Position numbers and translations under genes: made by a program. A DNA stretch of 64,000 nt from Ilumatobacteraceae bacterium (GTDB lineage: Bacteria; Actinomycetota; Acidimicrobiia; Acidimicrobiales; Ilumatobacteraceae), in contig JALHOG010000001.1 in the NCBI GenBank assembly GCA_022843125.1, positions 6,088 to 70,087 of the forward strand, in the 5' to 3' direction. Shown in pieces: positions 2,080 to 43,827 of this stretch. The notes under the pieces are model-generated. The model saw only the letters and a list, made by a program, of their open reading frames with translations. It was not told the DNA's origin and searched no databases. Numbering within the stretch: position 1 is the stretch's first letter; the number at the start of each line of letters is the position of its first letter.

Positions 2080-2250
2080 GCCGAGCGGCCTCCGCCGCAG
2101 GGACGGTCGCGCTCGGGCATCTCGATCGAACGTGGCCGGGGCCCCACAGCGGACCTCCTCTCGGGTCAACGAAGGCTAGGGCACGGCTGACACACGATCG
2201 CATTCGAATCTGCAGGGTCGCGGCGGCGTCACTCGGGTAGCGTCTGGCCG

Positions 2251-3618: not shown

Positions 3619-3790
3619 CTGCGGTGAGCCGAGCGGCTCGCCGAGCCACGGCGCGCAACGGAAGGTCACCGATCGTGGGGGAGCGCTACAGTCGGCCGGA
3701 TGGCGGCGGGAACGTGTGCGCGACGCGAGCGCGTCGCGATCGTCCTCGTGCGCCGGACGCTGCGGATCGGATGCGCGCTGGTGATGCTCT

Positions 3791-5290: not shown

Positions 5291-5360
5291 GTGTGACGCC
5301 GGGGCGATGCCTCGCCCATGCGGCAGGCACTCCGCCCCCGCATCGGCGGAGGACGAATAC

Positions 5361-6569: not shown

Positions 6570-6572
6570 GTA

Positions 6573-11473: not shown

Positions 11474-12444
11474 GTCGGATCTCCGTTCACGCGCCACCAG
11501 TCGACGAGTTGTCGCAGCCCGGTGTGGAGATCGACCTCGGCGACGAAGCCCAGGCGCTCACGTGCGGCCGACACGTCGGCGAGTCGGCGCGGCACCGGGT
11601 TGACCGACCGCTCGGGGCCGTACTCGGGCTGCAGGTCGGCGCCCATCACCTCGGTGAGCGCGGCGGCGAGACCGTTGAGGCTCGTCTCGGTCGCGCTGGC
11701 GATGTTGAAGATCTCGTCGTTCGCATCCGACTGTGCGGCCAGGATGTTGGCGCGGGCGATGTCGGTGGCGTAGATGAAGTCCATCGTCTGCTTGCCGTCA
11801 CCGAAGATCAGCGGTGGCTCACCGGCGGTGATCCGGTTCATCCAGCGGATCAGCACCTCGGTGTAGACGCCGATCGTGTCCATCCGTGGGCCGTACACGT
11901 TGAAGTACCGGAGCCCGACGTACGGCAGGCCGAACATGTCGTTGTACGACCGCAGCAGACCCTCGTTGTAGACCTTGAGCGCACCGTAGAGCGTGCGGTT
12001 GTTGTACGGGTGGTGCGACTCGTTGGTGGGGAACGACTCGGCGAGGCCGTACACCGATGCGCTCGACGACGCGATCACCTTGCTGGCGCCGGCGCGATGA
12101 GCGGCATCCACCACGTTGAAGGTTCCGGTCCCGAGGACGTCGTGCGCGAGCCGCGGATCCTCCGCACAGTGCGTGATGCGGATCGCCGCGAGGTGGAACA
12201 CGAGATCGGCGCCGTCGATGGCCTTCGTGACGGCGTCGGCGTCGCGGACGTCGCCCTCGACGATCTCGACCGGCCCGCGCGCCATGGCGTCGGCGAGGTT
12301 CGACATCCGCCCTCGCGTGAGATTGTCGAACACCACGATGTCGCCGTAGGTGCCCTGTTCGCGGCCGGCGACGAGGAGGTCGACGACGTGCGAGCCGATC
12401 AGGCCGGCACCTCCGGTGACGACGACTTTGCCGTAGTCGGGCAT
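11470..12444 (-). CDS. NAD-dependent sugar epimerase/dehydratase (extended SDR)
   Basis: C-terminal 324 aa of ORF 11470..13782. Opens [22 protein letters not shown] (GxxGxxG) and has YGALK (YxxxK). The upstream 445 aa of that ORF is an out-of-frame read across the next gene. Confidence 0.9.
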
Positions 12445-12464
12445 GGGTGTCTCCTGTTTCTGCG

Positions 12465-13577
12465 TCAGCGTGCGTCGCACCAGGCGCGCACGGCGGTGAC
12501 GACGCGCTCCTGCTGCTCGGGGGTGATCTCGGGGAACATCGGGAGCGACAGCACCTCGTCGGCGGCGGCCTCGGCGTGCGGGAAGTCGCCGCGACCATGG
12601 CCCAGCTCGGCGAAGGCCTGCTGCAGGTGGACCGGGATCGGGTAGTGGATGCCGGTGCCGACACCCTGCTCGGTGAGATGAGCCTGCAGCCCGGCGCGGT
12701 CGTCGGTGCGGATCGCGTACACGTGGTACACGTGGCGGCGGTCGTCGAGCTGGCGAGGCACCTCGACGCCCGATCCGGCGAGCCACTCGTCGTAGCGGGC
12801 AGCGGCGGCGCGGCGGGCCTCGGTCCACCCTTCGATGTGCGCCATCTTCACCTTCAGCACGGCGCCCTGCATGCCTTCGAGCCGGTAGTTGAAGCCCTTG
12901 AGGACGTGGTGGTACTTCTCTTCGGCGCCCCAGTCGCGGAGCATGCGCACGGTTCGGGCGACCTGGTCGTCGCTCGTGGTGACAGCACCACCTTCGCCGT
13001 AGGCGCCGAGGTTCTTGCCGGGATAGAAGCTGAAGCAACCGGCGAGTCCGATCGACCCGGCGCGACGGCCCCGGTACTCGGCGCCGTGCGCCTGCGCTGC
13101 GTCCTCGATCACGGCGATGCCGCGACGGTCGGCGACTTCGACGATCGGATCCATGTCGGCCATCTGGCCGTAGAGGTGAACGGGCACGATGGCCTTGGTG
13201 CGCTCGGTGATCGCCGCCTCGATCGCCCTCGGGTCGATCGTGAACGACACGGGGTCGATGTCGACGAAGACCGGGGTGGCACCGCAGTAGTCGATCGCCG
13301 ACACCGATGCGATGAACGTGTGGGGAGTGGTGATCACCTCGTCGCCGGGCCCGATGCCCGCCGCGAGCATGGCGAGGTGCAGGGCGCTGGTCCCGGAGCT
13401 GGTGCCGAGCACGTGCGTGCTCTGCGCATACGGCGCGAACAGCGATTCGAACGCGACGACGTCGCGGCCCAGGACGAACTGGGTGCTGTCGAGCAGCGCG
13501 AGGACCGCCTCGTCGATGTCTGCCTTGATCGAGAGGTACTGCGCCCGCAGGTCGACGAAGGGAACGGAACCGGACAT
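12465..13577 (-). CDS. DegT-family aminotransferase, WbpE-like
   Basis: Part of ORF 12465..13775 from [25 protein letters not shown]. Contains [31 protein letters not shown] and FSFYPGKNLGAYGEGG. Confidence 0.9.
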   Translation of the reverse strand: MSGSVPFVDLRAQYLSIKADIDEAVLALLDSTQFVLGRDVVAFESLFAPYAQSTHVLGTSSGTSALHLAMLAAGIGPGDEVITTPHTFIASVSAIDYCGATPVFVDIDPVSFTIDPRAIEAAITERTKAIVPVHLYGQMADMDPIVEVADRRGIAVIEDAAQAHGAEYRGRRAGSIGLAGCFSFYPGKNLGAYGEGGAVTTSDDQVARTVRMLRDWGAEEKYHHVLKGFNYRLEGMQGAVLKVKMAHIEGWTEARRAAAARYDEWLAGSGVEVPRQLDDRRHVYHVYAIRTDDRAGLQAHLTEQGVGTGIHYPIPVHLQQAFAELGHGRGDFPHAEAAADEVLSLPMFPEITPEQQERVVTAVRAWCDAR

Positions 13578-14605
13578 CAGACACTCCCTCGCATCGGCAG
13601 GATCTCGATCGGCAGCCCGCGTCGGGCCATCGACTCGTGGGCGGCTTCGAGGATTCGGACGACCCGCAGGCCGGCGCGCCCGTCGGACAGGGGCGTGTCG
13701 CCGGAGATGATGCAGTCGACGAAGTGCTGCGTTTCGATCGCGAGGGCCTCGACGTTGTCGAGCCGCGGCGCCCACATGTCACCGGTGCGGTACCCGACGT
13801 GCCGCTGGTACACGGCCTCTTCGGCCTCGTCGAGGATCACGCCCTTGTCGTAGACCTTGACCTTCTCGCTCATGTCGACATCGTCGAAGACCACCATCTT
13901 CTCCGAGCCGCAGAGCAGCGTCTGGCGCACCTTGACCGGTGCAAGCCAGTTGACGTGGAAGTGGGCGATCAGGTTGTCGGGGAACATGCACGTGAGGTAC
14001 GCCATGTTCTCCGGCTGCCCCGGCACGTGCGCGACGCCCGTGGCCGACACCGTCACCGGGTCGCAGTCGAGCAGGTAGTCCATGATCGACAGGTCGTGGA
14101 CGGCCAGGTCCCACATGACGCTCACGTCGCTCTGGAACAGGCCGAGGTTCACGCGAACCGAGTCGTAGTAGTACAGCTTCCCGAGCTCGCCCGCTGACAC
14201 CAGCTCGTGGATCTTACGGACCGCGCTCGTGTAGATGAATGTGTGGTCGACCATCAGCGTCAGCTCGCGCTCGTCGGCGAGAGCGATCAGCTCCTCGCCC
14301 TCGGCCGAGGTCGCGGTGAACGGCTTCTCGACGAAGACGTGCTTGCCGGCGAGCAGCGCTTGTTTGGCGAGCGGGTAGTGGGTGCTCACCGGCGTGGCGA
14401 TGACAACGGCGTCGACCGCCGGGTCGGCGAGCATCGCGCCGGCGTCGGTGTACGTGTTCACCGCCGGATAGAGCTTGTTGACGACACCGAGCCGCTCCTG
14501 GCGGCCGTCGCACACGGCCACGACACCGGCGCCGTCGACCTGCGCGAAGTTCCTGACGAGGTTGGGGCCCCAGTAGCCGTATCCGATGACGCCGATCCCG
14601 ATCAT
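13577..14605 (-). CDS. Gfo/Idh/MocA oxidoreductase, WbpB-like
   Basis: ORF track. Opens [20 protein letters not shown] (Rossmann fold) and has the EKP motif in HVFVEKPF. Confidence 0.9.
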
Positions 14606-15165
14606 GCTCGCTCCGCCTCGTGCACGCTGGCCGTGCGTGCCTCATCTGCCGTCTCGAAGCGCTGGCCGGCCGCGCTCACGTATCCGATGATCCGACCCGG
14701 GTTCCCGATCACGAGCGCGTGGTCGGGCACGTCCTTGGTGACGACGGTACCGGACCCGATCATCGCCCATCTGCCGATTTCGATGCCGGTGACGACCACT
14801 GCGCCGGCGCCGATCGCGGCGCCGTGGCGCACGACGGTGCGGCCGAGTTCCCAGTCGTCGGCGGACTTCAGCGCACCCGCCGGCGTGATCGCCCGCGGCA
14901 CCTTGTCGTTCGTGAAGATCACATGCGGTCCGACGAACACGCCGTCTTCGAGCGTGACGCCCTCGTACAGTGATGCGTTGTTCTGGACCTTGACGTTGTC
15001 GCCGAGCTCGACGTCGACGTCGACGAAGCAGTTGCGCCCGAGGATGCAACCGCGTCCGACTCGTGCGCCGGCCCGGACCTGCACGAGTGCCCAGACCTTC
15101 GTGCCGTCGCCGAGGGTTGCACCGTCTTCCACCAGTGCGGTGGGGTGCACGAAGGTCCCACTCAT
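14602..15165 (-). CDS. LbH N-acetyltransferase, WbpD-like
   Basis: ORF track. Hexapeptide repeats run through [21 protein letters not shown]...[41 protein letters not shown]. Confidence 0.85.
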
Positions 15166-15346
15166 CGTCCGATCATCCGTTCACTTCCGCCGTTCACGGG
15201 CCCATACCCGCTGTGTCAACATTGTGCACGCTACTGGCCGTCGGACGGGGCGCGATTTCAAGATTCACCGACCGTTTACCGTGGAGCGCGCGAGCCCGGC
15301 CACTGATCGTCCGATCGGCGCCGCCCCGACCGTCAGCGCGGTCGGA

Positions 15347-16324
15347 TCATCCCACGAGACGGTCGAACGCCTCGCGCCCACCGAGCTCATCGGCCATCCC
15401 CCGGTGCAGCTCGACGGCGTAGACGCCGCTGAGGGCGTACCGGCGGACCCGAACGAGACGTGTCTGCAGCGCGAGGCGTTCGAGCAGGGCGACCGATCGG
15501 GTGCGCCACCGGTCGGAGCGGATGCATCGCTTGACGAGCACGCGGATCGCGACGTGGTGCTGGCGGAACGTGTGGCGGCGGAAGCCGTAGATCCACGATT
15601 GCCCGCGATCCCGGGCGAAGACGATCTCGTTGCGGCCGTACAGGTACGCCGCAGACCGCCACGCCTCGTACGAGCGCTCGGCGTAATGCTCGCCTCTGGC
15701 GGACGGCTCGAAGTGGAACGTGAGGCCGTGGTCGGCCAGGCGGAACGCGAGCTCGATGTCCTCCGCCCGGCGAAACTCGGTGTCGAAGCCGCCCACGTCG
15801 ATCAGGTGCGATCGCCGCACCGACGCGTTCCCGGTGTAGAACTGCCGCGACGTCGCCTCGTACCTGCCCTGCAGCATGTCGTCGTACTGCTTGGCGAGCA
15901 TCGCCTGCTCCCAGGCGATCCATGGCGACATGTCATGGTCGGGAGGGTCGAGCATCGGCCCGATCACCACGACGCGATCGCCGAGGCGATGGTGGGCATC
16001 GCGGTGCGCTCGGAGCAGGCGTGCGTCGGCGACGACGTCATCGTCGACGAACACCACCAACTCGCCCATCGCTCGGGCGACGCCTGCGTTGCGTGCCCCG
16101 GCCGGACCCTGGTTGGCTTGGACCAGCGCGACGATCGGGAGCGGCACGTCCGCACTGTGGAGGTAGGCGTCGGTGTCGTCGGTACTGCCATCTGACACGA
16201 CGATCACCTCGAACGGCTCGTCGATGTCCTGCACGGCCAGCGATCGCAACACCCGGTGCAGACGCTCGCGCCGGTTGAAGGTGGGGACGACGACGCTGAT
16301 CCGCGGCGAGACCGGGTCGTTCAC
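15347..16324 (-). CDS. glycosyltransferase family 2
   Basis: ORF track. Contains [24 protein letters not shown]...[13 protein letters not shown]...VFVDDDV. Confidence 0.85.
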
Positions 16325-16863
16325 AGCGTCTTCACGACCTTGGCGGGTACCCCGACGGCCACGGAGCGGGGAGGGATGTCGTGCGTGACGACACTGCCGA
16401 TGCCGATGACCGAGTCGTCACCGATGGTGACCCCGGGCATCACGATCACACGCGCGCCGAGCCAGACGTTCTCACCGATCGTGATCGGTCGTGCCGTCGG
16501 CGGCTCGAGGCGCCGTTCGGGGTCGACGTCGTGGAATCCGGTGTCCATGATCATGCAGTGCGGGCCGATCAGTGCCCGCGGGCCGATCGTGACGCGCTCG
16601 ATCGCGACGATCGAGCACCCGAAGTTGATGAGCGATCGCTCGCCGATCTCCAGCGTCGCACCACGCTCTGCAACGAGCTCCAGGGTCGCAACGGTCGACA
16701 CGAACTGGACGCGGTCGCCGATCAGCAGGTTGCCGCGAGCGATCACGACCGGGCGACCGCGGAGTCGGACGCGCGCTCCGAGCCGAGCTGCACGCCGGAG
16801 GTACCAGCGTGCTCGCAACGTCGCGACGGCGTCGCCGCGGCGTTGCCACGCGCGACGGATCAC
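16321..16863 (-). CDS. LbH acetyltransferase (maltose/galactoside O-acetyltransferase-like)
   Basis: C-terminal part of ORF 16321..17361. Contains [51 protein letters not shown]. Start taken at GTG 16863, which overlaps the upstream stop as GTGA. Confidence 0.75.
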
Positions 16864-17408
16864 GGCAGTTCCCGAACAGGTCGAGCGGGAACGCCGGCGA
16901 CGAGCGTGTTGGGAGCGACGTCGCTGGCAACCACGGACCCGGCCGCGACGAGCGAACCTGGACCGATGGTGACCCCTGGGAGCACTGTCGCTCGTGCGCC
17001 GAGCCAGCAGCCGTTCCCGATGGTCACGGGCGCCGTTCGGTTGGCGGCAGCGCGTTGTGACGCATCGCCGATCTCGTGCGTCTGCGTCAGGAGCATCACG
17101 TTCTGGCCGATCGCCACGTCGTCGCCGATCTCGATCCGATCGGAGGCGTCGAGGTAACACCCTGCGTTGATCCAGACGCGGGCGCCGATCTCCACACGTC
17201 GAGCGCCGTTGCGTCCGGCGATCGTGAGGTGTCCACCGATCACTGACGCTCGACCGATCCGAACCCCGGCGCTCCGGAACAGCTTCGTGCGTACTCGGTT
17301 GCCGACGAGGTCGGGCAGCGCGCCGCTCACCGCTTCGGCGAGCGGCAGCATCGGCCGGCATCCGTTGAGCTCCTCACGAGCGACGCGGACGATCCGTCGA
17401 AGTTTCAC
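16860..17408 (-). CDS. LbH acetyltransferase (tandem paralogue of the preceding gene)
   Basis: ORF track. Contains [51 protein letters not shown]. Confidence 0.8.
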
Positions 17409-18553
17409 GTCGGAACCGTTCGCAGGCCCGCAGCTCCCTCGAGCAGCGCAGCGATCCGGCGGGCATTGGCGCGAGCATCGTGATCTGCTTCGGCGAGCGC
17501 CCGAGCGCCTGCGCCCAGGCGGCGACGCATCTCGCCGTCAGCGACCAACTGCCGCAACGCATCGCGTAGCGCATCTCGATCCGACGGCGGCACGAGCGCT
17601 CCGGTCGATCCTGGTCGGACGATCTCGCTGATCGCCCCGACGTCGGTCGAGATCAGCGGGAGACCGGCCGCAGCAGCTTCGGCGAGCACCATCGGGAGGC
17701 AGTCGCCCAGGGTCGGTAGGCAGAAGATGTCGGCGGCGTGGTATTGGGCGATCAGTTCCGGACTGTTCGACGTGAGCCCGCGATGCACCACGACGCCGGG
17801 CTCCTCGCTGACGTCCGCACCGGTGACGAGATGGAGTTCGATCGACGGCAGCCCCGACTCGAGGTTGAGGGCCCGCACGGCGTCGATCAGGAGATCCCCG
17901 CCCTTGCGGCGCAGGTCGCCGCCGACGAACAGCACACGGACAGGTTGCCCCGCAGCGACGGCGGGCGCATCGGGGCGCGCCCATCGCTCGACGTCGACGC
18001 CCGGTGCGATCACGGTCACCCTCGTCGCATCGACCCCGTAGGCGTCGACGAGGCCACGCTTTCCCCAGTGCGACCACGACACGATGTGCTGGGCCCGACG
18101 GAAGCAGGCGCGATTCGCCCGGAACTTGAGGGCCTCGACGCGTGGGTGGGATCGATCGTGCGCGTAGAACTCACCGAGTTCGTCGTACTGCTTCGGTGTG
18201 GCGTCGATCGACACCACGGTGGGTGTCGATCGCATCCACGGGCCGAGCAACACGGCGGGCACCTGGGTGTGGACGAACATCGCGGCCGGACGCCCGCTCC
18301 GGCGCCGCCGGAGGATCAGCCCGCGCGCGGCGCGGGCACCGGCGCGCACCGTCCAGTTCGTCCAGATCGGGAACGACCATCGGCCGACGTCGAAGGGCAC
18401 GAGGAGGAACTCGGGCGCGAGGTGGCCGTCGTCAGGCACGAGGGCCCGAAGGTTCTTGGTGTGCGTCACGTGGCCCAGCGTCTGTTCCATCACGAACAGC
18501 GCCGCAGGGCGATGTCGGCCGTGATCGCGACTGGATCGCCTGTCGTGCGCCAC
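17405..18553 (-). CDS. glycosyltransferase family 4 (GT-B)
   Basis: C-terminal part of ORF 17405..19015. Contains FVGGDLRRKGGD...ADIFCLPTLGDCLPMVLAEAAAAGLPLISTDVGA. Its N-terminus aligns with the GT4 at 6573 (ALFVMEQTLGHVTHTKNL versus AFVLDQVAGHVTNAQNL). Start at GTG 18553 is tentative. Confidence 0.8.
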   Translation of the reverse strand: MAHDRRSSRDHGRHRPAALFVMEQTLGHVTHTKNLRALVPDDGHLAPEFLLVPFDVGRWSFPIWTNWTVRAGARAARGLILRRRRSGRPAAMFVHTQVPAVLLGPWMRSTPTVVSIDATPKQYDELGEFYAHDRSHPRVEALKFRANRACFRRAQHIVSWSHWGKRGLVDAYGVDATRVTVIAPGVDVERWARPDAPAVAAGQPVRVLFVGGDLRRKGGDLLIDAVRALNLESGLPSIELHLVTGADVSEEPGVVVHRGLTSNSPELIAQYHAADIFCLPTLGDCLPMVLAEAAAAGLPLISTDVGAISEIVRPGSTGALVPPSDRDALRDALRQLVADGEMRRRLGAGARALAEADHDARANARRIAALLEGAAGLRTVPT

Positions 18554-18834
18554 CTGATGTCCGTTCTCGTCGATCCCGCCTGATCGCTGCCCCGAGCAGA
18601 CAGCGATCACGATGGTAGCGGCGCGCACCGCCGAGCGTCGCCGGTGCTGACCGCGTTGCAGGGTGAGTTCACTCAGGGTTCTCTCAAGAAGGACGGGTCG
18701 CCCTCCGATAGGCGATCGATGAAGCAGAAGTCGGTCGACCGCGCATCGACAAGGGGCTACCGTTGCGCCGGGCGATCTCCGGCGCCGACCGATCGACCAG
18801 GTTCGGCGGGTCTGCAGATCGAGGCGGAGAAGAG

Positions 18835-21800
18835 ATGAGCGGAGAAGCGGGAACGAGCGTGCCGGCACGCCGCGTCGCGATCGTCGGCGACGCGACGTTG
18901 ACCGGGCAGTGCGTCGAGGTGGCGCGTGGACGCGGGCTCGATGTCGTGGTCGTGGCGACCGAGCACCCCCACGTACGAGCGCAGGCCTCGGAGTTCGGTG
19001 TCCCCGTCGTCGCATCGGCCGACGTCGTCCGGGGCGCGCTCGACGTGTTCGAGTTCGACGTGCTCCTGAGCATCGCGAACCTCCGTGTGCTGCCCGAGTC
19101 GGTGCTGCGCCGTGCTCGGTACGCGATCAACTTCCACGACGGGCCGCTGCCGGCGCTCGCAGGGCTGAACGTCACCACATGGGCGATCCTCGCCGGTGCC
19201 GAGACCCATGCCGTCACGTGGCACCTGATGACCGACGACGTGGATGGCGGCGCCGTCGTCACCACCGAGTCGTTCGACATCGACGGCGATGACACCGCGT
19301 TCTCGCTCAATGCTCGCTGCTACGAGGCGGCGATGGTCAGCTTTCCGCGCGTGGTCGATGCGCTCGTGTCCGGTCGGATCGAGGCGACGCCGCAGCCGGC
19401 CGGGGAGCGGCGCACGTGCAAACGCTTCGAGCGTCCTGCGTTGATCATCGATCCGGCTCGTCACGCAGTCGCAACGGTCCGGGAGATCCGCGCCTGCAGC
19501 CTCGGTCATGCCGCTCCCAACTCGATCGGCGCGTCGCACCTCATTGCCAACGGACAGGTCGTGGTCGTCACGGGTGCTCGCATCGCCGAGTCCGTCGGGG
19601 CGCCGGCCGGCACGGTGACGATCGACGATGGCGCGCTCCGGTTGGCGGCCACCGGTGGTGACATCGTGATCGACGGGATCGAATCGGTCGACGGCCGTCA
19701 GCTCCTGCCTGCCGACGCGCTCGCCACTCTCGGCCTCACGTCAGGCTCGGTCGTGCCGAGCCCGGCGCCTGCGTTGGCGGATGCATTCGCCGCGCTCGAC
19801 CCTGCCCTCGCCCGCCATGAACCCTTCTGGCGAACTGCGCTCGCGGGCATGTCGTCCTCGGCACGACCGTGGTTCCTCGAACGCCCCACGTCGTCGCCGG
19901 CGGTGGTGCGCCGCGACCTGCCACGCGGCGCAACGCCCGACGACGTGGCTGCCGCCATCGCGGCATGGAGCCGCCGAGCGCTCGGCGCCGCCGAGGCGGT
20001 GTTCGCCGTCGCCGACGAGTCGGCACGATCCTGCGTCGCAGCGCTGTTCCCGCTCGCACAGCAGCCCGTGGTGCGGATCGCCGTCGACGACGGCGTCCCG
20101 TTCGGAGAGCTCTGCCACCGAGCTGCGCGCACGCGGACCGAAGCACTCGACCACGGGCCGTTCCTGAGCGACCTGGTCGGACGTGATCCGGTGCTGCGAG
20201 GGACGGTGATCGCGCCGCATCTGACACTCGACACCAGAACCGCCGAGATCGCGCCCGACGCCCATCCACACGCACCGTCATCGACGCTGCGCGTGGGCGT
20301 CCACGACGGACGCCTCGAGTGCCGCGGGCCTGCTGAGCAGCGCTCGCTCGAGCGGTTCGCCGATCAGATCGTCGTGCTGCTGGCCGCCGGCCTCGCGGCT
20401 CCCGGCACACCCATCGGCGAACTGCCGATGCTCGGCGCCGACGAAGTCGCCGAGCTCGATTCGATCAACCGCACCGAGATCACGTTCGACCGCGACGCCA
20501 CGATCGACGAGCTGTTCCGCCGGCAGGCCGAGCGCACACCGGCCGCGCCCGCACTCACATTCGGCGGCGAGACGCTCACCTACGAGCAACTCACCCGACG
20601 CGTCGACGCGATCGCTTCCCAGCTCGCTGCAGCCGGTGTCGGGCGGAACGACCGCGTCGGCATCGCGCTCGAGCGGAGCGCCGACATGGTGGCGTCGGTA
20701 CTCGCCACGCTCGCGTGCGGTGCCGCCTACGTGCCGCTCGACCCCACCTACCCGCCCGACCGCATCTCGCTGATGATCGAGGACAGCGGTCTGCGGGTCC
20801 TCGTCGCCGAGCCCGGCAACCCCGTGGTCGTCGGCGCGCCCGATGGCGTCGTGGTGATCCAGCCGACGCCCGACAGAACCGGCGCCGGTGCGTCCCTGCC
20901 GGTGGGCGGCCACATCGCCGACGATCTCGCGTACGTCATCTACACCTCGGGTTCGACGGGCACGCCCAAGGGCGTGATGCTCGAGCACCGGAACGTCGTC
21001 AATTTCTTCGCGGCCATGGACGCCGTGATCGACCACGATCCCCCCGGCGTCTGGCTCGCCGTCACGAGCCTCTCGTTCGACATCTCCGTCCTGGAGTTGC
21101 TGTGGACCGTGACCCGCGGCTTCCACGTCGTCGTCAAGCCGGACAGCGGGGCGAAGGCGATGCGACGGCACGCTCCGGCTCTCCGGCCGATGTCGATGAG
21201 CCTCTTCTACTTCGCTGCCGGCGAGGACACCGCCGCCGACGGCTATCGGCTGCTGCTCGACAGTGCTCGGTGGGCCGATGCCCAGGGGCTGGAGGCGGTG
21301 TGGACGCCCGAGCGGCACTTCCACGCGTTCGGCGGTGCCTACCCCAACCCGTCGGTGATCGGCGCCGCGATCGCTGCCGTCACCGATCGCATCCGCATCC
21401 GTGCGGGCAGCGTGGTGGCCCCGCTGCACTCGCCGGCCCGGATCGCCGAGGAATGGGCCGTCGTCGACAACCTGTCGGGTGGTCGCGTCGACATCTCGTT
21501 CGCAGCCGGATGGCAGCCCAACGACTTCGTCCTCAACCCCGATGCGTACGCGACCGCCCGCGAGTCGCTGCCGAGCATCGTCGACACCGTGCGGCGGCTG
21601 TGGCGCGGCGAATCGGTCGACATGGCAGGTCCCGACGGCGCGATGGTGCCCATCCGGACCCTCCCGCGCCCGATCCAGCCGGAACTCCCGGTGTGGCTCA
21701 CCTCGGCCGGGTCGACCCCCACCTTCGAGCGCGCCGGGGCGATGGGTGTCAACCTGCTCACGCACCTCCTCGGCCAGTCGATCGAGCAGCTGGCGGAGAA

Positions 21801-23496
21801 CGTCGCCGCGTATCGGCGGGCGTGGCGCGACGCAGGCCACCCGGGCGAGGGGCGTGTGACGCTCATGCTGCACACCTACCTGCACGACGACGCCGACGAG
21901 GCACGTCGCGTCGCCCATGAACCGATGAAGCGGTACCTCGGCACGGCGGCCGGCCTGCTCCGCAACATGGCCTCGGCGTTCCCGGTGTTCGCGGGGAGCG
22001 GGAAGGACGCCGACGAGGCGTTCGCCTCGCTGACCCCCGACGAGCTCGACCAATTGCTCGAGATGGCGGCCGCTCGCTACCTGCACACGAGTGGCCTGTT
22101 CGGCACGGTCGACGACGCCGCCGAGCTGCTCGCCCGGTGCAGCGCCGCCGGTGCCGACGAGATCGCGTGCCTGGTCGACTTCGGCATCGACACCGACGCC
22201 GTGCTCGGCTCCCTGCCGTTGCTCGGCGCCGTGCACAATCGGTTGGTCGCCGGTCGGGCGGCCGGGTCACCGGCGGTATCGGAGGCTGTCGACGCGCTCG
22301 ACGTCTCGTTCGCCCAGCTCGTCGCCGATCACTCGGTCACCCACCTGCAGTGCACACCGTCGTTGGCCACGATGCTCGTCGCCGATCCCGCCGACCGCGC
22401 TGCGCTCGGCACGATCCCGCATGTCATGCTCGGTGGCGAGGCGCTCCCGACAGCGCTCGCATCCGAGCTGACGGCGATGTTGCCGGGCCGGCTCACCAAC
22501 ATGTACGGCCCGACCGAGACCACCATCTGGTCGCTCGTGCACGACGTCACATCGGTGCCTTCGACGGGCATCCCGATCGGCCGCCCGATCGGGAACAACA
22601 CGGTCTTCGTGCTCGACCCCGCTGGGCGTCGGCTCCCGATCGGCGCGTTCGGTGAGCTCCACATCGGCGGTGACGGGGTGGCGCGCGGATACCACGAGCG
22701 ACACGAGCTCACGGCACAGCGCTTCGTCGACCGGCCGGGCATGGGCCGCGTGTACGCGACCGGCGACGTCGTCCGGTTCAACGGTGACGGGATCGTCGAG
22801 TTCGCCGGGCGCTCTGATCACCAGGTGAAGATCCGTGGCCATCGCATCGAGCTCGGCGAGATCGAGACCGTGATCGACGGCCACCCCGACATCGTCCAAT
22901 CGGTCGTCGTCGCCCACCGCCCTCCGACGGGCGACCCGCGGCTGGTGGCCTTCGTGGTCACGAGCGCCGGGGTGCCCGTCGACGAGGCGCTCGTGCGCAG
23001 CTCGGTCGGCGAGCGGCTCCCCGAGGCGTATGTGCCGACTCGCGTGGTGCGGCTCGACGGGTTGCCGCTCACCCCCAACGGCAAGACCGACCGGAGCCGG
23101 CTGGAAGCCGATGTCGAGGCGTACCTCGCAGGTGTGCCCGATGTCGAGCTCGCCACTCCTGTTCTCGACGACGACACGGAACAGCTCGTGGCCGAGGTGT
23201 GGCAGGCCGAGTTGCGCCGTCCAGTCGGACCCGATGACAACTTCTTCGAGATCGGCGGCAACTCGCTGCTCGCCGTCACGGTGTTCCGCTCGGTGTGCGA
23301 GCGGACGGGTGCCGAACTCGCACTGACCGACGTCTTCCGCTTCCCGACGATCCGCACCTTCGCCGCCCACCTCCGACGTGTCTCCGAGCAGCGCGCCGGT
23401 GGCGCGTCCGGCCCGGAGGCAGCGGCATCGGCGCCGAGCGGCGCGATCGACCGCGGCGCGATGCGGCGGCGGGCGCTCGCCAGGCGAGGGGGATGA
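18835..23496 (+). CDS. NRPS loading protein: formyltransferase-like, C-terminal half of a condensation domain, adenylation domain interrupted by an LLM, then PCP
   Basis: ORF 18763..23496. Start taken at ATG 18835, preceded by GAGGCGGAGAAGAG. A-domain core motifs are A3 YTSGSTGTPKG (20941-20973), A4 FDIS (21076-21087), A5 NMYGPTE (22498-22518), YATGD, GRSDHQVKIRGHRIELGEIE and PNGKTDR. The PCP motif FFEIGGNSL has its Ser codon at 23263-23265. Confidence 0.9.
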   Translation: MSGEAGTSVPARRVAIVGDATLTGQCVEVARGRGLDVVVVATEHPHVRAQASEFGVPVVASADVVRGALDVFEFDVLLSIANLRVLPESVLRRARYAINFHDGPLPALAGLNVTTWAILAGAETHAVTWHLMTDDVDGGAVVTTESFDIDGDDTAFSLNARCYEAAMVSFPRVVDALVSGRIEATPQPAGERRTCKRFERPALIIDPARHAVATVREIRACSLGHAAPNSIGASHLIANGQVVVVTGARIAESVGAPAGTVTIDDGALRLAATGGDIVIDGIESVDGRQLLPADALATLGLTSGSVVPSPAPALADAFAALDPALARHEPFWRTALAGMSSSARPWFLERPTSSPAVVRRDLPRGATPDDVAAAIAAWSRRALGAAEAVFAVADESARSCVAALFPLAQQPVVRIAVDDGVPFGELCHRAARTRTEALDHGPFLSDLVGRDPVLRGTVIAPHLTLDTRTAEIAPDAHPHAPSSTLRVGVHDGRLECRGPAEQRSLERFADQIVVLLAAGLAAPGTPIGELPMLGADEVAELDSINRTEITFDRDATIDELFRRQAERTPAAPALTFGGETLTYEQLTRRVDAIASQLAAAGVGRNDRVGIALERSADMVASVLATLACGAAYVPLDPTYPPDRISLMIEDSGLRVLVAEPGNPVVVGAPDGVVVIQPTPDRTGAGASLPVGGHIADDLAYVIYTSGSTGTPKGVMLEHRNVVNFFAAMDAVIDHDPPGVWLAVTSLSFDISVLELLWTVTRGFHVVVKPDSGAKAMRRHAPALRPMSMSLFYFAAGEDTAADGYRLLLDSARWADAQGLEAVWTPERHFHAFGGAYPNPSVIGAAIAAVTDRIRIRAGSVVAPLHSPARIAEEWAVVDNLSGGRVDISFAAGWQPNDFVLNPDAYATARESLPSIVDTVRRLWRGESVDMAGPDGAMVPIRTLPRPIQPELPVWLTSAGSTPTFERAGAMGVNLLTHLLGQSIEQLAENVAAYRRAWRDAGHPGEGRVTLMLHTYLHDDADEARRVAHEPMKRYLGTAAGLLRNMASAFPVFAGSGKDADEAFASLTPDELDQLLEMAAARYLHTSGLFGTVDDAAELLARCSAAGADEIACLVDFGIDTDAVLGSLPLLGAVHNRLVAGRAAGSPAVSEAVDALDVSFAQLVADHSVTHLQCTPSLATMLVADPADRAALGTIPHVMLGGEALPTALASELTAMLPGRLTNMYGPTETTIWSLVHDVTSVPSTGIPIGRPIGNNTVFVLDPAGRRLPIGAFGELHIGGDGVARGYHERHELTAQRFVDRPGMGRVYATGDVVRFNGDGIVEFAGRSDHQVKIRGHRIELGEIETVIDGHPDIVQSVVVAHRPPTGDPRLVAFVVTSAGVPVDEALVRSSVGERLPEAYVPTRVVRLDGLPLTPNGKTDRSRLEADVEAYLAGVPDVELATPVLDDDTEQLVAEVWQAELRRPVGPDDNFFEIGGNSLLAVTVFRSVCERTGAELALTDVFRFPTIRTFAAHLRRVSEQRAGGASGPEAAASAPSGAIDRGAMRRRALARRGG
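18868..19700 (+). other. formyltransferase-like domain (N and C subdomains) of the loading protein; boundaries approximate
   Basis: Contains RRVAIVGD...AINFHDGPLPALAGLN. Asn 19129-19131 and His 19135-19137 match the N-x-H of FMT/GART-type transferases. LMTDDVDGG supplies the Asp. Confidence 0.7.
21190..22230 (+). other. LLM domain inserted between A4 and A5 of the adenylation domain; boundaries approximate
   Basis: Contains MSMSLFYFAAGEDTAADGYRLLLDSARWADAQGLEAVWTPERHFHAFGGAYPNPSVIGAAIAAVTDRIRIRAGSVVAPLHSPARIAEEWAVVDNLSGGRVDISFAAGW...ACLVDFGIDTD. This is the pattern of FMN-dependent LLM domains found embedded in NRPS/PKS proteins. Confidence 0.8.
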
Positions 23497-26400
23497 GCGT
23501 GCAGGACGACGCAAACGCCGAGACAGACATCGCGATCGTCGGCATGTCGGGCCGCTTCCCGGGCGCGCCCGACGCCGAGGCGCTGTGGGAGCGCGTCGTG
23601 GCCGGCGACGACTGCCTCGCCGATCTCGACCCGAGATCACTCATCGCCGCCGGTGTCGACGCAGCGCTGGTTCGCCGACCCGAGTTCGTGCCGCGTGCCG
23701 GCGTGATCGAGGGCGTCGATCAGTTCGACCACGACTTCTTCGGGATCAGCCACCGCGATGCGTCGGTCATGGATCCGCAGCACCGGCATTTCATGGAGTC
23801 GGCGTGGGAGGCGCTCGAGTCGTCGGGCAACACGCCCGAGGGCTTCGACGGGGCGATCGGTGTGTTCGCCGGGTCCGGGATGAACACGTACCTGCTGCAC
23901 AACCTGCTGACGAACCCGTCGCTCGTCGAACAGCTCGGCTGGTTCCTGCTCCGTCACACCGGGAACGACAAGGACTTCCTCACCACCACGCTCTCGTACC
24001 GGCTCGGCCTCCGCGGCCCCTCGGTCAACGTGCAGACCGCCTGCTCGACGTCGCTCGTCGCCGTGCACCTGGCGGTGCAGAGCCTGCTCTCGTTCGAGTG
24101 CGACCTGGCGCTCGCCGGCGGCGTCACGATCGAGTTCCCGCACGGTCGCGGCTACGAGTACCGCGAGGGGGAGATCCTCTCCCCGAACGGTCGCTGTCGA
24201 GCGTTCGATGCCGCATCCGACGGGACGGTCATCACCGGGGGTGCTGCGGTCGTGGCCCTCCGCCGCCTCGCCGACGCCCAGCAGAACGGCGACCCGATCC
24301 TCGCGGTCATCAAGGGCTCGGCCGTCAACAACGACGGCAACCGCAAGGTGGGGTACTTGGCACCCAGCGTCGACGGCCACGCAGATGTGGTCAAGGAGGC
24401 GCTCACGGTCAGCGGTGTCGACCCGAGGTCGATCGGCCTGCTCGAGGCCCACGGCACGGGCACCGCCGTCGGTGACCCGATCGAGGTCGCCGCACTCACC
24501 GAGGCGTTTCGCTCGGGCACCGCCGACCAGGGCTTCTGCCGGCTCGTCTCGACGAAGCCCAACATCGGGCACCTCGACACGGCGGCCGGCACGGCGAGCC
24601 TCATCAAGGTGGTCCAGGCGTTACGCCACGGCATCCTGCCCCCGCTCGCCAACCACACCGCGCCGAGCCCGCTGCTCGGCATCGAGCGGACCCCGTTCGT
24701 GCTGTCGGCCGAGGCCGCCCCATGGACCGCTGACGGCCCGCGCCGGGCCGGCGTCAGCTCGCTCGGTGTCGGTGGCACGAATGCGCACGTGGTCGTCGAG
24801 GAGGCGCCGCCCGTACCGCCGACGCCCGCGGCAGTTCCGGGGCAGATCATCACGTTGTCGGGCTCCTCGCGTGCGGCGGTCGACGACGCGGCCGAGCGTC
24901 TCGCCGCATTCATCGAGCGGCAGCCCGAGACCAACCTCGCCGACGTTGCGCACACGATGATCACGGGCCGCCGTGTGCATCGCCATCGGCGGGTGGTGGC
25001 CGTCACCGATGCGTCCAGCGCGCCCGCAGAGCTCCGTAGCACCGATCGTCGGCGCTGTCCAACGGCCGAGGCGCCCGCCGAGCGACCCCAGATCGCGTTC
25101 GTCTTCCCGGGCGGTGGCTCGCAATACCCGGGCATGGGGGCCGGGCTCGACGCCCGTTTCGACGAGTTCCACCGCGTCCGGCGTGAGGGCATCGAGATCG
25201 TGCGTCGGCTCGGCGGTGCCGATCTCGACCCGCTGCTCTCCGACGGTGGCGACGCCGATCTGCTCCGCCAGCCGACCGCGTCGCTGCCCGCCGTGTTCAT
25301 CACGTCGACCGCGCTCGCCCGCCAGTGGCAGACATGGGGCGTCGAGCCGGACGTCATGGTCGGGCACAGCCTCGGTGAGTACGTCGCTGCGCACCTCGCG
25401 GGCGTGATCTCGTACGAGGACGCGCTGCGGCTCGTGGTCGTCCGCTCGGCGCTCATGGAGCGCGCAGCCGTCGGTGGTGCGGCGATGCTCGTCGTTCCAC
25501 TGCCCGAAGCCGAGGTGGTGCGTCGGCTCCCCGCCGAGCTGTCGCTCGCCACGGTGAACACCGACGACGAGTGCGTCGTCGCCGGCCCGGCCGACGCCGT
25601 GTCCCGGTTCGCCGACGCCCTGACCGGAGAGGGCATCGAGGTGACCCGCATCCCGCTCGCCGCCGCAGCTCACTCGTCGATGCTCGACGGCGTGCTCGAC
25701 GAGTTCGAAGCGGTCGTGCGCACGGTCACGCTCCACTCGCCGCAGCGTCCATATCTCTCGAACGTCACCGGGACCTGGATCACCGAACAGCAGGCCACCG
25801 ACCCGCGCTACTGGGTGCAGCACCTGCGGGGCACGGTCCGCTTCGCAGACGGGCTGCGGACGGCGATCGGGGAGCGAACGACCGTCGTGGTCGAGCTGGG
25901 CCCGGGCCAGACGCTGGCGTCGTACGCCCGCCGCAGCGGCCTGCCCGTGCGGGCGATCTCGACCCTGCGACACCCCGACGACCTCGTCAGTGATGTCAAC
26001 CACACGCTGGGTGCGTTCGCGCAGCTCTGGACGCACGGAGTCGACGTCGACCTCGACCACACGACAGGTGAGGGTCGAGGTGAGGGTCGCCGGAAGCTCC
26101 GGCTGCCGACCTACCCGTTCCAGCGGGTGCGGTGCTGGATCGAGCCGGGCAGCGGTTCGGCGCTCGGAGGGAGCAATCCCTCGGCGTCGACCGACATCGA
26201 ACCCGCCGTCGAACGGTTCGCGGACGTCGATCAGATGGGTTGGCAGCTCACCTGGGTCGAAGCGCCTGATCCCGAGCGCGTCGCGAGCGAGCGGCGCTGG
26301 ATCGTCGTCGGCGGCGCGGATGCGGTCGTCGACGAGCTACGGTGCCGTGGGCGCACGGTCGTGCGCCGCGATCGTCTCGTGCTCGACGATGCCGAGTTGG

Positions 26401-29400
26401 TGGGCGATGAGTCCGCCCCGGTGGGCGTGCTGCTCGCCGGTTCGGGCGGCGACGTCGAGGGAGCGATGTCGCTCTGGCTCGATCAGGCTGCGGACGCCGT
26501 CCGCTGGCTGTCGAACACGTCGACCGACCCGCGCTTCGTCGCACTCACCTCGGCGGCGATGCCCGCTGGAGGCTCGGTCACGAACCCCATCGACGCACTC
26601 GCGATGGGTGCGGTCCTGGTGGCGCCCCGCGAGTACGCCGGGCTCGCGACGGCCCTGGTCGATGTCGTCGAGGGTGCCGACGTCGACATCGGTGCGATCG
26701 TCGACGAGATCGAGGGGGCGAGCGGCATCGTGGTGCTGGGCGACGGGCAGCGCCGCTCGCCGGGACCGGTCGCCGAGGCGCCGACATCGTTCGACGCGCA
26801 GCCGGGGATCCGGCACGGCGGGACCTACGTGGTCACCGGTGGATTGGGCGGGATCGGTGAGGTGATCGCAGCGCACCTCGCGACGCAGCACGCGACCAAC
26901 CTGGTGATCCTCACCACCGACGACCTCCCCCGGGGGATCGATCGCGACCGCTTCCTTCGCCGGCACGCGTACGACCACCCCACCTGCCGCCGCCTCCGGA
27001 GGATCGCCCATCTCGAGCAGCTCGGCGTCAAGGTGGTCGTCGAGCGCGCCGACGTGAGCGACCCCGACCAGATCCGGGCGGCACTCGACGCTGCCGAGCG
27101 GACCGTCGGTCCGATCGACGGTGCGATCCACGCTGCGGGCCGGTTGCGCGACCGCCCGATCGGGCTCGCCACGCCCGACGACCACCGGTTCGTCATCGAG
27201 CCGAAAGTCGGCGCGGCGGTCGTGCTCGCGTCCGAGCTCGCACGACGCGGCGCCGATCTGCTCGTGCTCGTGTCGTCGACGAGCACGATCCTCGCTCCCG
27301 AGGGCCAGATGTCGTACGTCGCTGCCAACGGTGTGCTCGACGCGATGGCCGGCGACCGGAACGGACTCCGGATCGTGACGCTGTCGTCGGGCGTCTGGTC
27401 GGGTCTCGGCATGGCGACCGAGGCCGGCCGGCGTTCCCGACTCGCGCTTCCGGGCGGCGACGCGCTGGAGCACCCGGTGTTCGCCGAGGGAGGGCTCGAC
27501 CATCGCGGCGATTTCGTCGCGACCGGGCAGCTCCACCCGCAGCACCACTGGGTGGTCGATGATCACCGGACTGCCGATGGCACAGCGGTCCTGCCCGGAA
27601 CCGGGCATGTGGCGCTCCTGCTCGCAGCGGCCCGGCTCGCCGGGGTGAACCACCCGCAGCTCGACGACGTCACGCTGATCGAGCCCCTGATCGTCCCCGA
27701 TGACCGTCCGGTGACGGTGCGGGTCGTGGTCGAGCGCGACGTCGACGGTCGCAGGGCAGTGCGCGTCGACAGCGATGGTGGAGGGGGCGCACAGTGGACG
27801 ACGCACAGCGAAGCGACCGTGTCGGATGGGCCCGCCGCAGCGCGCCGGATCGACATCGATGCGATCGTCGCACGCTGCGGACTCGATGCGGGTCATCCCA
27901 TGGCGGCGGCGGCGGAGCACCTCGTGCTCGGGCCGATGTGGCAGCTGGACGGCCAGGTGTGGCTTGGCGACCGCGAGGCCTTCGGACGGGTCGCAGGAGG
28001 CGACGACACCGATGTCGACGACGGATGGATCGCACATCCCTCGGTGGTCGATCTGGCCACCGGTGTCGCGATCGCGCTGGCCGCATCGGAAGGTTCGCAG
28101 CTCTTCGTGCCCGTTGCGTACGAAGCGGTGCGTCTCAGCGCTCCGGTGATGGGCCCCTGTGTCGTACACGCGACGCGGCGCCCCTCCGACACCGGAGACC
28201 TCGTCGCCGACATCGTGATCGCGAATGCGGATGGCACGGCACTGCTCACGATCGACGGTCTCCACCTTCGCGGGATCGACGTCTCCGTGTTGTCCAATGC
28301 ATCCCAACACCACACGGCCGGAGCACCGGGCGGAGCGGGAACGGACCGCGGCGTGCTCGATCTCGCCGAGCCGCTCGGCCTGCGCCCCGAGGAGGCACTT
28401 CCCTGGTTCGATCGTCTGGTGGGGTCCGACCTCGACCGGGTCATCGTGACGTCGATCGACCTCGAATCGCTGCGACGCACCGAAGCACCGGCTCACGGGG
28501 GCACGCCTGCGGCGGTCGACCGACCCGGCGTCACGGCCGGTCTCGACGATCAGCTCACACTGATGTGGCAGGAACTGCTCGGCGTCGCCCAGGTCGGACC
28601 CGACGACGACTTCTTCGACCTCGGCGGGCACTCCCTCATGGCGATCCGCCTCATGACGCGCATCAAGCGCGAGCTCGGCGTGCGCTTCGAGCTCTCGACG
28701 ATCTTCGAGGCATCGACCGTCCCTGCGCTCGCGGCCCTCGTCCGGCAGCAGCGCCCGGACATCGATGCGGCCCTGTCGTCGTCATCGGGTGAGGCCGCAG
28801 CCGCGCCCCTCGCCGTCGGTCAGATGCCGGCACCAGTGCGCAAGCAACTCGTGACGATCAGTCGTCGTGGGGAGCGGCGGCCGTTCTACGTGGTGCACGG
28901 TGCCGGCGGCAATGTGCTGTTCCTGTCGACGCTCGCACGCGCGCTCGCCGGAGATCGGCCGATCCACGGCTTCCAGGCGATCGGCGTCAACGAAGGTGAG
29001 ATCCCCGATCGGTCGATCGAGGAGATGGCGGCCCGCTACGTCGCCGAGCTGCGAGAGCACTCCCCGGCCCCCTATCTCCTGGGCGGGTACTCGGGCGGTG
29101 GGATCGTGGCGCTCGAGATGGTGCGGCAGCTCGCTGCGCTGGGTGACCAGGTGGAGCACCTCGTCCTGTTCGACAGCGCACCACCGGGAACCACCTGGCC
29201 ACGATTCCGCGTCCGCTGGACCCGTCTGCTCCGCCGGCTGCTCGCCGGCGAGGCGGCACCCGTCAAGGCGCACACCATCCGGGGCGTGAAGGCGTCGCTG
29301 CGGCGAGTACTGCCGGAGCGGGCCGAACAGCGCCAGGAGCATGACCTGCAGGAGCGAGCGCTCGGCTACGCCGGCGACGACACGGGATTCGTCAACCTCT

Positions 29401-29693: not shown

Positions 29694-29852
29694 ACACCGG
29701 GAGAACAGAGAGAAATCCGGTAGCGGGGCAGCCGCGCGTTTGATAACCATGTGTGATGACCGGCGGGTCAGCGGTTCAATGCTCGTGCTACGTGGTGCGA
29801 GCAGACCTCATTCGACGGGCATCATCGGTGAGTGGCGGGAAGGAAGCGAGTC

Positions 29853-43697: not shown

Positions 43698-43827
43698 CGG
43701 ATCCCCCTCGTTGCGCCGACACCCCAGATCGTGACAGCGATCACCGCAACAGGAAAGCCGGTTCTGTACATCCGGGCGATGAGGAGAACTCATCGACGCG
43801 CGCCTCCAGATCGCGGCGGGCGTTACC

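Follow-up and report, generated by a model that had tools for sequence, protein, structure and literature searches.

A formyltransferase and a condensation-domain C-lobe at the head of a glycine-code NRPS protein from an Ilumatobacteraceae bacterium

What does a formyltransferase do in front of half a condensation domain, and what kind of assembly line begins in this way? The question is raised by a nonribosomal peptide synthetase (NRPS) gene in a 64,000-nt stretch of contig JALHOG010000001.1 from an Ilumatobacteraceae bacterium (assembly GCA_022843125.1, positions 6,088 to 70,087, forward strand), which is referred to as the window in the following. The gene (18835..23496, plus strand) was singled out by codon-position GC and the listing of open reading frames (ORFs) in a window with an overall G+C content of about 69%. 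ORF listing, translation and scans with Pfam and NCBIfam give a protein of 1553 aa, which consists of a formyltransferase (F) domain, the C-terminal lobe of a condensation (C) domain (C-lobe), an adenylation (A) domain with a glycine code that is split by a luciferase-like monooxygenase (LLM), and a peptidyl carrier protein (PCP). The ATG at 18835 is preceded by ggcggagaagag, a ribosome binding site of the GGAG type. It is reasonably probable that the NRPS is the initiation module of a two-protein assembly line, formed together with a polyketide synthase (PKS), that makes a small glycine-derived acyl unit. The original prediction had described a loading protein with an apparently active formyltransferase, a C-terminal half of a C domain and an LLM-split A domain, and had taken this combination to be new. 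This interpretation was found to be largely right, and the claim of novelty has to be narrowed.

Formyltransferase domain and C-lobe

The F domain is a full formyltransferase of the Fmt/ArnA type with both an N-terminal and a C-terminal subdomain. The catalytic N-terminal subdomain (18862..19434, plus strand; aa ~10-200) is matched by Formyl_trans_N (PF00551) at aa 65-174 with 53.6 bits against a gathering cut-off of 26.1 (E 3e-14). The C-terminal subdomain, a beta-barrel of the Fmt/ArnA type (19447..19749, plus strand; aa ~205-305), was recognised by phmmer and Foldseek. Its Pfam profile, Formyl_trans_C (PF02911), was not matched in the window protein, and it is precomputed for several homologues of the NRPS. 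In phmmer comparisons with PDB sequences, residues 44-307 of ArnA pair with aa 46-310 of the NRPS (E 4e-12) and the Met-tRNA formyltransferase Fmt of B. anthracis pairs with aa 8-277 (E 4e-11), with an identity to ArnA/Fmt of only about 22%. The F domain of LgrA is a much weaker match, restricted to LgrA residues 36-164 on aa 64-191 (E ~2e-4).

In the alignment with ArnA, AINFHDGPLP of the NRPS pairs with AFNLHGSLLP, VTWHLMTDDVDGG pairs with VTLHRMVKRADAG and TWHLMTDDVDGGAVV lies on TLHRMVKRADAGEIV. From these pairings it follows that Asn99 (19129-19131), His101 (19135-19137) and Asp137 (19243-19245) occupy the catalytic positions, in register with the ArnA triad. Their coordinates agree exactly with those given in the original prediction of the N-x-H motif, which had also named a downstream aspartate. 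The three residues are conserved in at least 90% of 78 aligned homologues and are invariant in all 67 full-length homologues, which come from many phyla. This invariance argues for a working enzyme, and the domain is apparently an active formyltransferase, as judged from its sequence. A chance occurrence of the N-x-H motif was also considered and is ruled out by the profile E-values together with the conservation in 67 of 67 sequences.

An AlphaFold model of aa 1-560 reached a pLDDT of 90.4 and a pTM of 0.86. About 300-320 residues of this model superpose on complete Fmt and ArnA-formyltransferase chains, including their C-terminal subdomain, with Foldseek TM values of 0.80-0.83 (normalised by target) and E-values down to 6e-21. 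The predicted resemblance to formyltransferases is thus borne out by the profile match, the phmmer pairings and the fold. Furthermore, the pTM of the model suggests that F domain and C-lobe form a fixed didomain.

The C-lobe (19765..20487, plus strand; aa ~311-551) comprises the equivalents of motifs C5 to C7 and was located by profile, hhalign and Foldseek. Scans of aa 311-560 alone with Pfam and NCBIfam gave no Condensation match, even at an E-value of 10. A profile was built from the aligned region of 12 homologues. Compared with the PDB, it matched only chains of the condensation family, and always their C-terminal halves, the best match being EntF 236-453 (E 4e-10); McyB, Txo1/Txo2, PvdL, TomB, the teicoplanin X-domain, RzmA-Cs and CDA-C1 were matched as well. 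In hhalign, the C-lobe was placed on columns 190-443 of the 443-column C domain from the other NRPS of the window (E 3e-5). As Foldseek with the whole didomain was dominated by formyltransferases and uninformative on the second half, the latter was modelled again on its own (pLDDT 89.5). All 50 of the top 50 matches of this separate model belong to the NRPS C-domain family (E 6e-10 to 2e-6, TMq 0.52-0.66). By eye, ARHEPFWRTAL can be assigned to the 'yW...L' helix after C4, LFPLAQQPVVRI to C5, LDHGPFLSDL to C6 and GRDP to C7, where it resembles RDxSRNP.

An HHxxxD motif is absent from the whole of aa 1-560. Of the two lobes of a C domain only the C-terminal one was found, and the N-lobe is not present, since the residues before aa 311 have the formyltransferase fold. 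The half C domain without HHxxxD had therefore been recognised correctly, and only its end, placed at 20470, lies about six codons short of aa 551 (nt 20487), with the A domain starting at aa 561 (nt 20515).

For C domains, contacts with the PCP (T-domain) have been assigned to the C5-C6 region, and the C:A didomain has been described as a stable platform (PMC10212144, PMC10510592). On this basis, it is proposed that the retained lobe keeps both roles. By analogy, it is most likely kept as a structural platform for the core of the A domain and as a docking face for its own PCP, and the formyltransferase most likely occupies the place of the lost condensation N-lobe. A more active role would be that of a chimeric 'formyl-condensation' domain, in which the C-lobe guides the phosphopantetheine arm into the F site and may gate the choice of the aminoacyl group. 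This would suit the constant length of the C-lobe in every relative examined, the confident model of the didomain and the occurrence of F domain and C-lobe at the head of NRPSs with other A-domain specificities. It would also suit the conservation among the 78 aligned homologues, in which E329, L336, D446 and R450 are kept in at least 90% and W332, R381 and P452 in 80-90% of the sequences. Moreover, F domains of the LgrA type do without a C-lobe (PMC10510592), which shows that an NRPS does not require the lobe just for carrying such a domain. However, the conserved positions (E329, W332, R381, D446, R450 and P452) belong to the generic fold motifs C5-C7, and no catalytic residues can be named. 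A guiding or gating function is thus considered rather improbable, and the role as platform and docking face is preferred.

Interrupted A domain, partner PKS and proposed starter chemistry

The Pfam scan of the NRPS found AMP-binding as two pieces, one at aa 561-779 and one in a later stretch. The N-terminal part of the A domain (20515..21189, plus strand; aa 561-785) extends through motif A4, its PF00501 match at aa 561-779 covering profile positions 1-255. The C-terminal part with motifs A5-A10 (22234..23154, plus strand; aa 1134-1440) was assigned by TIGR01733, AMP-binding_C and the extraction of the code. An FMN-dependent luciferase-like monooxygenase of the MupA/Atu3671 family (21196..22233, plus strand; aa 788-1133) is inserted between the two AMP-binding halves and splits the A domain between motifs A4 and A5, as had been predicted. 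It is matched by TIGR04020 with 465 bits against a cut-off of 244 (E 1e-139, NCBIfam) and by Bac_luciferase (PF00296) at aa 793-1108. The PCP follows at 23185..23373 (plus strand; aa 1451-1513) with a PF00550 match of E 2e-12.

The ten-residue code of the A domain, DILQLGMIWK, is a glycine code, the residues D-I-L of which lie in SFDISVLELLW. In the form DILQ[LVI]GM[IV]WK it is found in about 62 of the 67 full-length homologues. Five homologues lack the monooxygenase (L028, L036, L038, L053 and L072), and these are exactly the five with non-glycine codes, namely DLFNLGLTYK, DLTKIGEVGK (twice), DVWHCGLIDK and DLYNLGLTYK. This coincidence indicates that the monooxygenase goes with glycine. All five keep the F domain and the C-lobe, and in L028, L053 and L072 a thioesterase (TE) directly follows the PCP instead of a partner PKS. 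Flavin monooxygenases inserted in glycine modules, such as SolF of solanimycin and MtaG/MelG of myxothiazol/melithiazol, hydroxylate the alpha-carbon of N-acylglycyl-S-PCP (PMC10204066), and members of TIGR04020 are alpha-hydroxylases in several assembly lines (PMC8739492).

The NRPS is translationally coupled to a type I PKS gene (23493..29693, plus strand), the TGA of the former overlapping the ATG of the latter in ggggATGAgcgtg (ATGA, 23493-23496). According to Pfam, the PKS is composed of ketosynthase (KS), acyltransferase (AT), ketoreductase (KR), dehydratase (DH), acyl carrier protein (ACP) and TE. Its active-site motifs TACSTS, HGTGT, NIGH, GHSLG and GYSGG were identified, and the KS, AT and TE motifs are intact. 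The KR (aa 1176-1368) lies ahead of the DH-like region (aa 1404-1661), the motif of which, HRTADGTAVLP, corresponds to HxxxxGxxxxP and is one residue longer than canonical. In textbook cis-AT modules the DH precedes the KR; the order with the KR first is reminiscent of PfaA-type proteins of polyunsaturated fatty acid synthases.

According to domain order and profile scans, the A-PCP starter module has the F domain at its N-terminal end and lacks an upstream C domain. Since no catalytic C domain precedes the A domain, the NRPS protein can only start a chain. A route can be proposed in which the A domain would load glycine onto the PCP and the F domain, like those of LgrA and OzmO, would formylate the glycyl amine with N10-formyl-tetrahydrofolate (N10-formyl-THF) as donor. 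The LLM would then use FMNH2 and O2 to convert N-formyl-Gly-S-PCP to N-formyl-alpha-hydroxy-Gly-S-PCP, in the manner of MtaG/MelG/SolF, and the N-acyl group would also be needed for the resulting hemiaminal to persist. Subsequently, the KS would take over the N-formyl-(alpha-hydroxy)glycyl unit and add one malonyl unit, KR and DH would process the chain, and the TE would release or transfer a C4 acid. Because of the context of the locus described below, this product would probably be attached to, or prime, a cell-surface polysaccharide.

A formylation at this point makes chemical sense, as the characterised monooxygenase modules use N-acylglycyl thioesters and an un-acylated alpha-hydroxyglycine would collapse. 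Given the glycine code, a glycine-derived and N-formylated starter is the most economical reading of the sequence. The formyl group may be an intermediate only, since the N-formyl hemiaminal can lose formamide, which would give a glyoxylyl-derived unit. The original prediction of an N-formylated, glycine-derived product is therefore supported for the starter by the glycine code and the F domain, whereas N-formylation of the final product is not assured.

Another possibility would be that the F domain formylates a thiol, giving a formyl thioester on the phosphopantetheine arm as in HypX, or that it is dead, so that glycine enters the PKS un-formylated. HypX makes formyl-CoA, and its N-terminal domain, which has the same fold, is among the structural matches, but scores far below ArnA and Fmt. 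In addition, the invariant triad argues against a dead domain, and a formyl-S-PCP starter would be superfluous where an A domain loads glycine onto the same PCP. On chemical grounds, spontaneous loss of ammonia would be expected from a free alpha-hydroxyglycyl thioester. Thiol formylation or a dead domain is thus very unlikely, and formylation of PCP-bound glycine is the preferred function.

Distribution and gene neighbourhood of the cassette

The layout F / half-C / A[LLM] / PCP recurs across hundreds of bacterial species, as a rule within clusters of polysaccharide genes. A pattern scan of a collection with one genome per species gave at least 596 confirmed relatives, and the best 80 loci were fetched. 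Among these 80, the closest relatives are found in the Acidimicrobiia (44-50% identity in the F domain). Others belong to the Rhodobacterales, Burkholderiales, Hyphomicrobiales, Sphingomonadales and Myxococcota as well as to the Planctomycetota, Acidobacteriota, Gemmatimonadota, Verrucomicrobiota and Bacteroidota. Among complete copies, the length hardly varies (~1520-1590 aa). Of the 80 fetched loci, 54 include a PKS homologue, either downstream, upstream or divergent, and most of the remaining loci are short or truncated by the end of a contig. Recurrent flanking genes encode GT2 glycosyltransferases (25 loci) and Sfp-type phosphopantetheinyl transferases (PPTases; 24 loci by ORF clustering, 23 by tblastn). 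Clustering and Pfam also revealed Wzx, Wzz, an initiating sugar transferase and AT3/SGNH acyltransferases as recurrent neighbours.

A polysaccharide context of the cassette was seen in the window, in Shimia and on a Parasedimentitalea plasmid, where it is located between genes for a tyrosine kinase, a sugar transferase and glycosyltransferases. A search of plasmids yielded further examples in Parasedimentitalea, Paracoccus, Aminobacter, Rhizobium, Bradyrhizobium, Mycetohabitans and Streptomyces, but no named product is connected with any of these. The F region was also matched by three pSymA records of Sinorhizobium, and in the one that was inspected it adjoins genes for AMP-binding and adenylation-domain proteins and insertion sequence elements. 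Word-indexed protein searches returned 24 and 15 proteins, most of them partial and metagenomic and none a named homologue with a characterised function, and a cluster look-up of ten homologues of the ~1.2-kb class gave generic names only. In RefSeq, the 1536-aa homologue on the Parasedimentitalea plasmid pW43C (4948-9558) is named 'MupA/Atu3671 family FMN-dependent luciferase-like monooxygenase'. This name hides the NRPS and formyltransferase nature of the protein, which may explain why the architecture has gone unremarked.

The pair of F domain and C-lobe is not confined to this cassette. With the C-lobe profile, an exhaustive HMMER search yielded 15,245 proteins at E <= 1e-3. Many of the best 150 have the match at about residues 300-575, and the remainder are large NRPSs matched through ordinary C domains. 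The former group comprises proteins of ~1140-1210 aa with the order F / C-lobe / A / PCP and no insert, proteins of ~1520-1590 aa with the insert and, as a third class, multi-module NRPSs of 3000-6000 aa. The combination of F domain and half C domain is thus also common without the monooxygenase, and its position at the head of several NRPS classes points to a general initiation device. A multi-module NRPS of 2537 aa on plasmid pBRH01 of Mycetohabitans rhizoxinica HKI 454 (446323-453936) matches aa 8-358 of the query with its start, and a multi-module NRPS of 3120 aa on a plasmid of Streptomyces sp. NBC_00158 (369893-379255) matches aa 16-345. In both cases, the N-terminal match runs through the F domain into the beginning of the C-lobe.

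In the window, the cassette is preceded by polysaccharide genes (877..18700), which were assigned by Pfam and NCBIfam. They encode an acyltransferase-3, a Wzx-type flippase, three GT4 and one GT2 glycosyltransferases, a methyltransferase and a deacetylase. Furthermore, two DegT aminotransferases, a sugar 3-dehydrogenase-like GFO enzyme and sugar acetyltransferases, namely N-acetyltransferases of the NeuD/PglB type and O-acetyltransferases, are present. The longest ORF of the GT4 gene directly upstream (17405-19015, minus strand) overlaps the start of the NRPS gene (18835, plus strand) by 180 nt. As its Pfam matches begin only at aa 214, the true GT4 start is probably internal, which would probably leave a short divergent promoter region at about 18.7-18.83 kb. 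Downstream of the PKS, genes for a UDP-glucose 6-dehydrogenase-like enzyme and an epimerase/dehydratase of the short-chain dehydrogenase/reductase (SDR) family follow (29832..32140, plus strand; Pfam and NCBIfam). The former was located at 29832-31166 (plus strand), and the SDR (31025-32140, plus strand) has a sub-threshold match to the C-terminal region of ArnA (89 bits against a cut-off of 777). For the DegT aminotransferase at 10316-11497 (minus strand), the UDP-Ara4N aminotransferase model of NCBIfam is second-best, below its cut-off and just behind PseC. Together, the DegT, dehydrogenase and SDR genes are a hint at an Ara4N-like or other 4-amino sugar as a possible component of the polysaccharide.

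These genes bear on an alternative function of the F domain, namely an ArnA-like action on a nucleotide-activated amino sugar (a UDP-4-amino sugar), in which case its fusion to the NRPS would serve co-expression or co-localisation only. The best solved relatives of the domain are the ArnA formyltransferase (E 4e-12) and WbkC, which formylates GDP-perosamine; both score much better than the F domain of LgrA. The window has two DegT aminotransferases, one of them UDP-Ara4N-like below the cut-off, in addition to the UDP-glucose 6-dehydrogenase and the ArnA-C-like SDR, and the cassette occurs in polysaccharide loci of several phyla. However, the order F / C-lobe / A / PCP does not vary among the 80 fetched loci and is kept in multi-module NRPSs, and the amino-sugar genes of the window are not conserved beside the cassette elsewhere. 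Moreover, the F domain of LgrA formylates a PCP-bound amino acid, and the same has been proposed for OzmO, CongA and PtxE (PMC4504003, PMC5764310). A sugar substrate is thus unlikely, and N-formylation of PCP-bound glycine by an initiation module is still favoured.

Several points weigh against this favoured reading. Among solved structures, the F domain is most closely related to formyltransferases that act on sugars or tRNA (ArnA, Fmt, WbkC), LgrA-F scoring far lower, and with an ArnB-like aminotransferase, a UDP-glucose dehydrogenase and an SDR resembling the C-terminal part of ArnA in the window a sugar acceptor is conceivable. The structure models were built from shallow alignments of 24 and 12 sequences, and the role of the C-lobe as scaffold and docking face is assigned by analogy. 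Formylation is presumed to come before hydroxylation, and the formamide may be either retained or expelled. Finally, the product of the related Roseobacter cluster was described as 'not yet characterized' as of 2015 (PMC4337385).

A more far-reaching reading, which joins these aspects, is put forward tentatively and is less probable than the initiation module as such. It proposes that the formyltransferase replaced the condensation N-lobe and formed a chimeric 'formyl-condensing' didomain, the C-lobe of which would still provide the platform for the A domain and the entry for the acceptor PCP. This would be a second structural solution to N-formylation in NRPSs, independent of that in LgrA and far more widespread. 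In the branch with the monooxygenase, the main purpose of formylation would be to provide, from the glycine starter, an N-acyl-glycyl thioester open to alpha-hydroxylation. The resulting C2 starter, an N-formyl hemiaminal or a glyoxylyl unit, would be extended by the one-module PKS to a reactive C4 unit that might cap, prime or decorate cell-surface polysaccharides in hundreds of species, including those with the Roseobacter cluster.

The window also contains a second, unrelated NRPS (33916-41193, minus strand) of 2425 aa with two C-A-PCP modules and a TE. It adjoins a pyridoxal phosphate-dependent enzyme of Cys/Met metabolism (32701-33906, minus strand) and a P450-like ORF (42414-44321, minus strand) and forms with them a small NRPS cluster of its own next to the polysaccharide locus. 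The GC skew is strongly positive (0.21) in two 2-kb bins inside this cluster, at 34-36 kb and 38-40 kb. As a PPTase, the window offers a single candidate, an ORF with high GC at third codon positions (43783-44502, plus strand), which overlaps the long minus-strand ORF listed as P450 and shows a weak match to the Sfp-type PPTase encoded after the NRPS in Shimia (36% over 92 aa, E 5e-8).

Comparison with known systems

No characterised pathway with the full combination of F domain, half C domain and LLM-split A domain was found. The F + half-C layout was not found described in the literature, which was searched only partly for F-domain architecture and otherwise for interrupted A domains, the link to polysaccharides and the Roseobacter cluster. 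For the full combination, the claimed novelty was not contradicted by a characterised pathway, but the layout as such is widespread, with at least 596 relatives, and the Roseobacter gene set has been reported. What appears not to have been described before is the retained C-lobe, the F domain of Fmt length and a starter in which both are combined with a glycine A domain split by a monooxygenase.

In both sequence and fold, the F domain is best matched by the N-terminal domain of ArnA and by Fmt; the matches span about 300 residues and take in the C-terminal subdomain as well as the N/H/D triad. In contrast to the F domain of the window, which is fused into an NRPS, these enzymes are free-standing or directed at sugars or tRNA. 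The X-domain of glycopeptide synthetases (PDB 4TX2/4TX3), which is among the profile and fold matches of the C-lobe, likewise has the C-domain fold without the catalytic motif. However, the X-domain keeps both lobes and recruits P450s, whereas the window protein has the C-lobe only, on the N-terminal side of an A domain.

MtaG, MelG and SolF share with the window NRPS a glycine A domain interrupted by a flavin monooxygenase of the same LLM family, TIGR04020, which in these three hydroxylates the alpha-carbon of N-acylglycyl-S-PCP (PMC10204066). They are elongation or termination modules, in which a complete catalytic C domain supplies the N-acyl chain. The window NRPS is a starter module without an upstream catalytic C domain, so that the formyl group delivered by the F domain is the only N-acyl group available. 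The strict coupling of monooxygenase and glycine in a starter with formyl-THF as only N-acyl donor suggests a specific chemical logic.

The gene order PKS / GT2 / NRPS / PPTase is found exactly in the homologous loci of Shimia, Parasedimentitalea and other Rhodobacterales, and a four-gene set of NRPS, PKS, glycosyltransferase and PPTase has been reported from 28 of 57 Roseobacter genomes (PMC4337385). The window shares with it the orthologous NRPS beside a KS-AT-KR-DH-ACP-TE PKS. Here, however, NRPS and PKS are directly coupled in this order, an orthologue of the Shimia GT2 was not found in the window, and an adjacent PPTase is missing, the only PPTase-like match (44074-44313) lying about 20 kb away. 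The two-gene cassette, which is widespread and usually embedded in Wzx-type polysaccharide loci, thus matches the Roseobacter NRPS/PKS cluster. The prediction of its starter chemistry makes the question of the Roseobacter product, still unknown in 2015, more tractable.

OzmO, CongA and PtxE of the oxazolomycin, conglobatin and phthoxazolin pathways deliver N-formylglycine starters to the KS of a PKS (PMC4504003, PMC5764310, PMC9057759). OzmO (1196 aa; PMC9057759) and PtxE (1154 aa; PMC5764310) were annotated as F-A-PCP proteins with glycine specificity. Their lengths equal the sum of F (~305), C-lobe (~245), A (~520) and PCP, as compared with ~790 aa for a module of the LgrA type, and resemble those of the insert-free proteins of ~1140-1210 aa described above; judged from these lengths only, they probably have an unannotated F + C-lobe head as well. 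The best database match of OzmO at the time was the pederin protein PedF, a C-A-PCP protein (PMC9057759). Unlike the window NRPS, the three loaders have an A domain without monooxygenase and are followed by a cyclodehydratase (OzmP/CongE), which forms the oxazole, and by long PKS lines; the window has a single KS-AT-KR-DH-ACP-TE and no annotated cyclodehydratase. An oxazole-forming loader like OzmO was considered for the window as well. It was set aside, as no cyclodehydratase of the OzmP/CongE type is annotated near the cassette and KR and DH of the PKS would remove the beta-keto group needed for cyclisation.

To our knowledge, LgrA is the only system for which structures of an N-terminal formylation domain are available. 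In LgrA (F-A-PCP; PDB 5ES5-5ES9, 6MFW-6MG0), an F domain of the N10-formyl-THF type is likewise fused ahead of an A-PCP starter and, seen from the A domain, takes the position of a C domain (PMC10510592). The amino acid loaded by LgrA is valine, a monooxygenase is absent, and the chain passes to a C domain instead of a KS. Its F domain consists of the N-terminal 193 residues and directly abuts the A domain (PMC10510592), whereas that of the window NRPS extends over about 300 aa, includes the complete Fmt/ArnA C-terminal subdomain and is separated from the A domain by a C-lobe of 240 aa. The locus thus shows a build unlike the F-on-A arrangement of LgrA, with a full Fmt-like F domain and a retained C-lobe heading very many NRPSs. 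This build represents a natural experiment on the contribution of the C-lobe as platform and in PCP docking, which is relevant to NRPS engineering.

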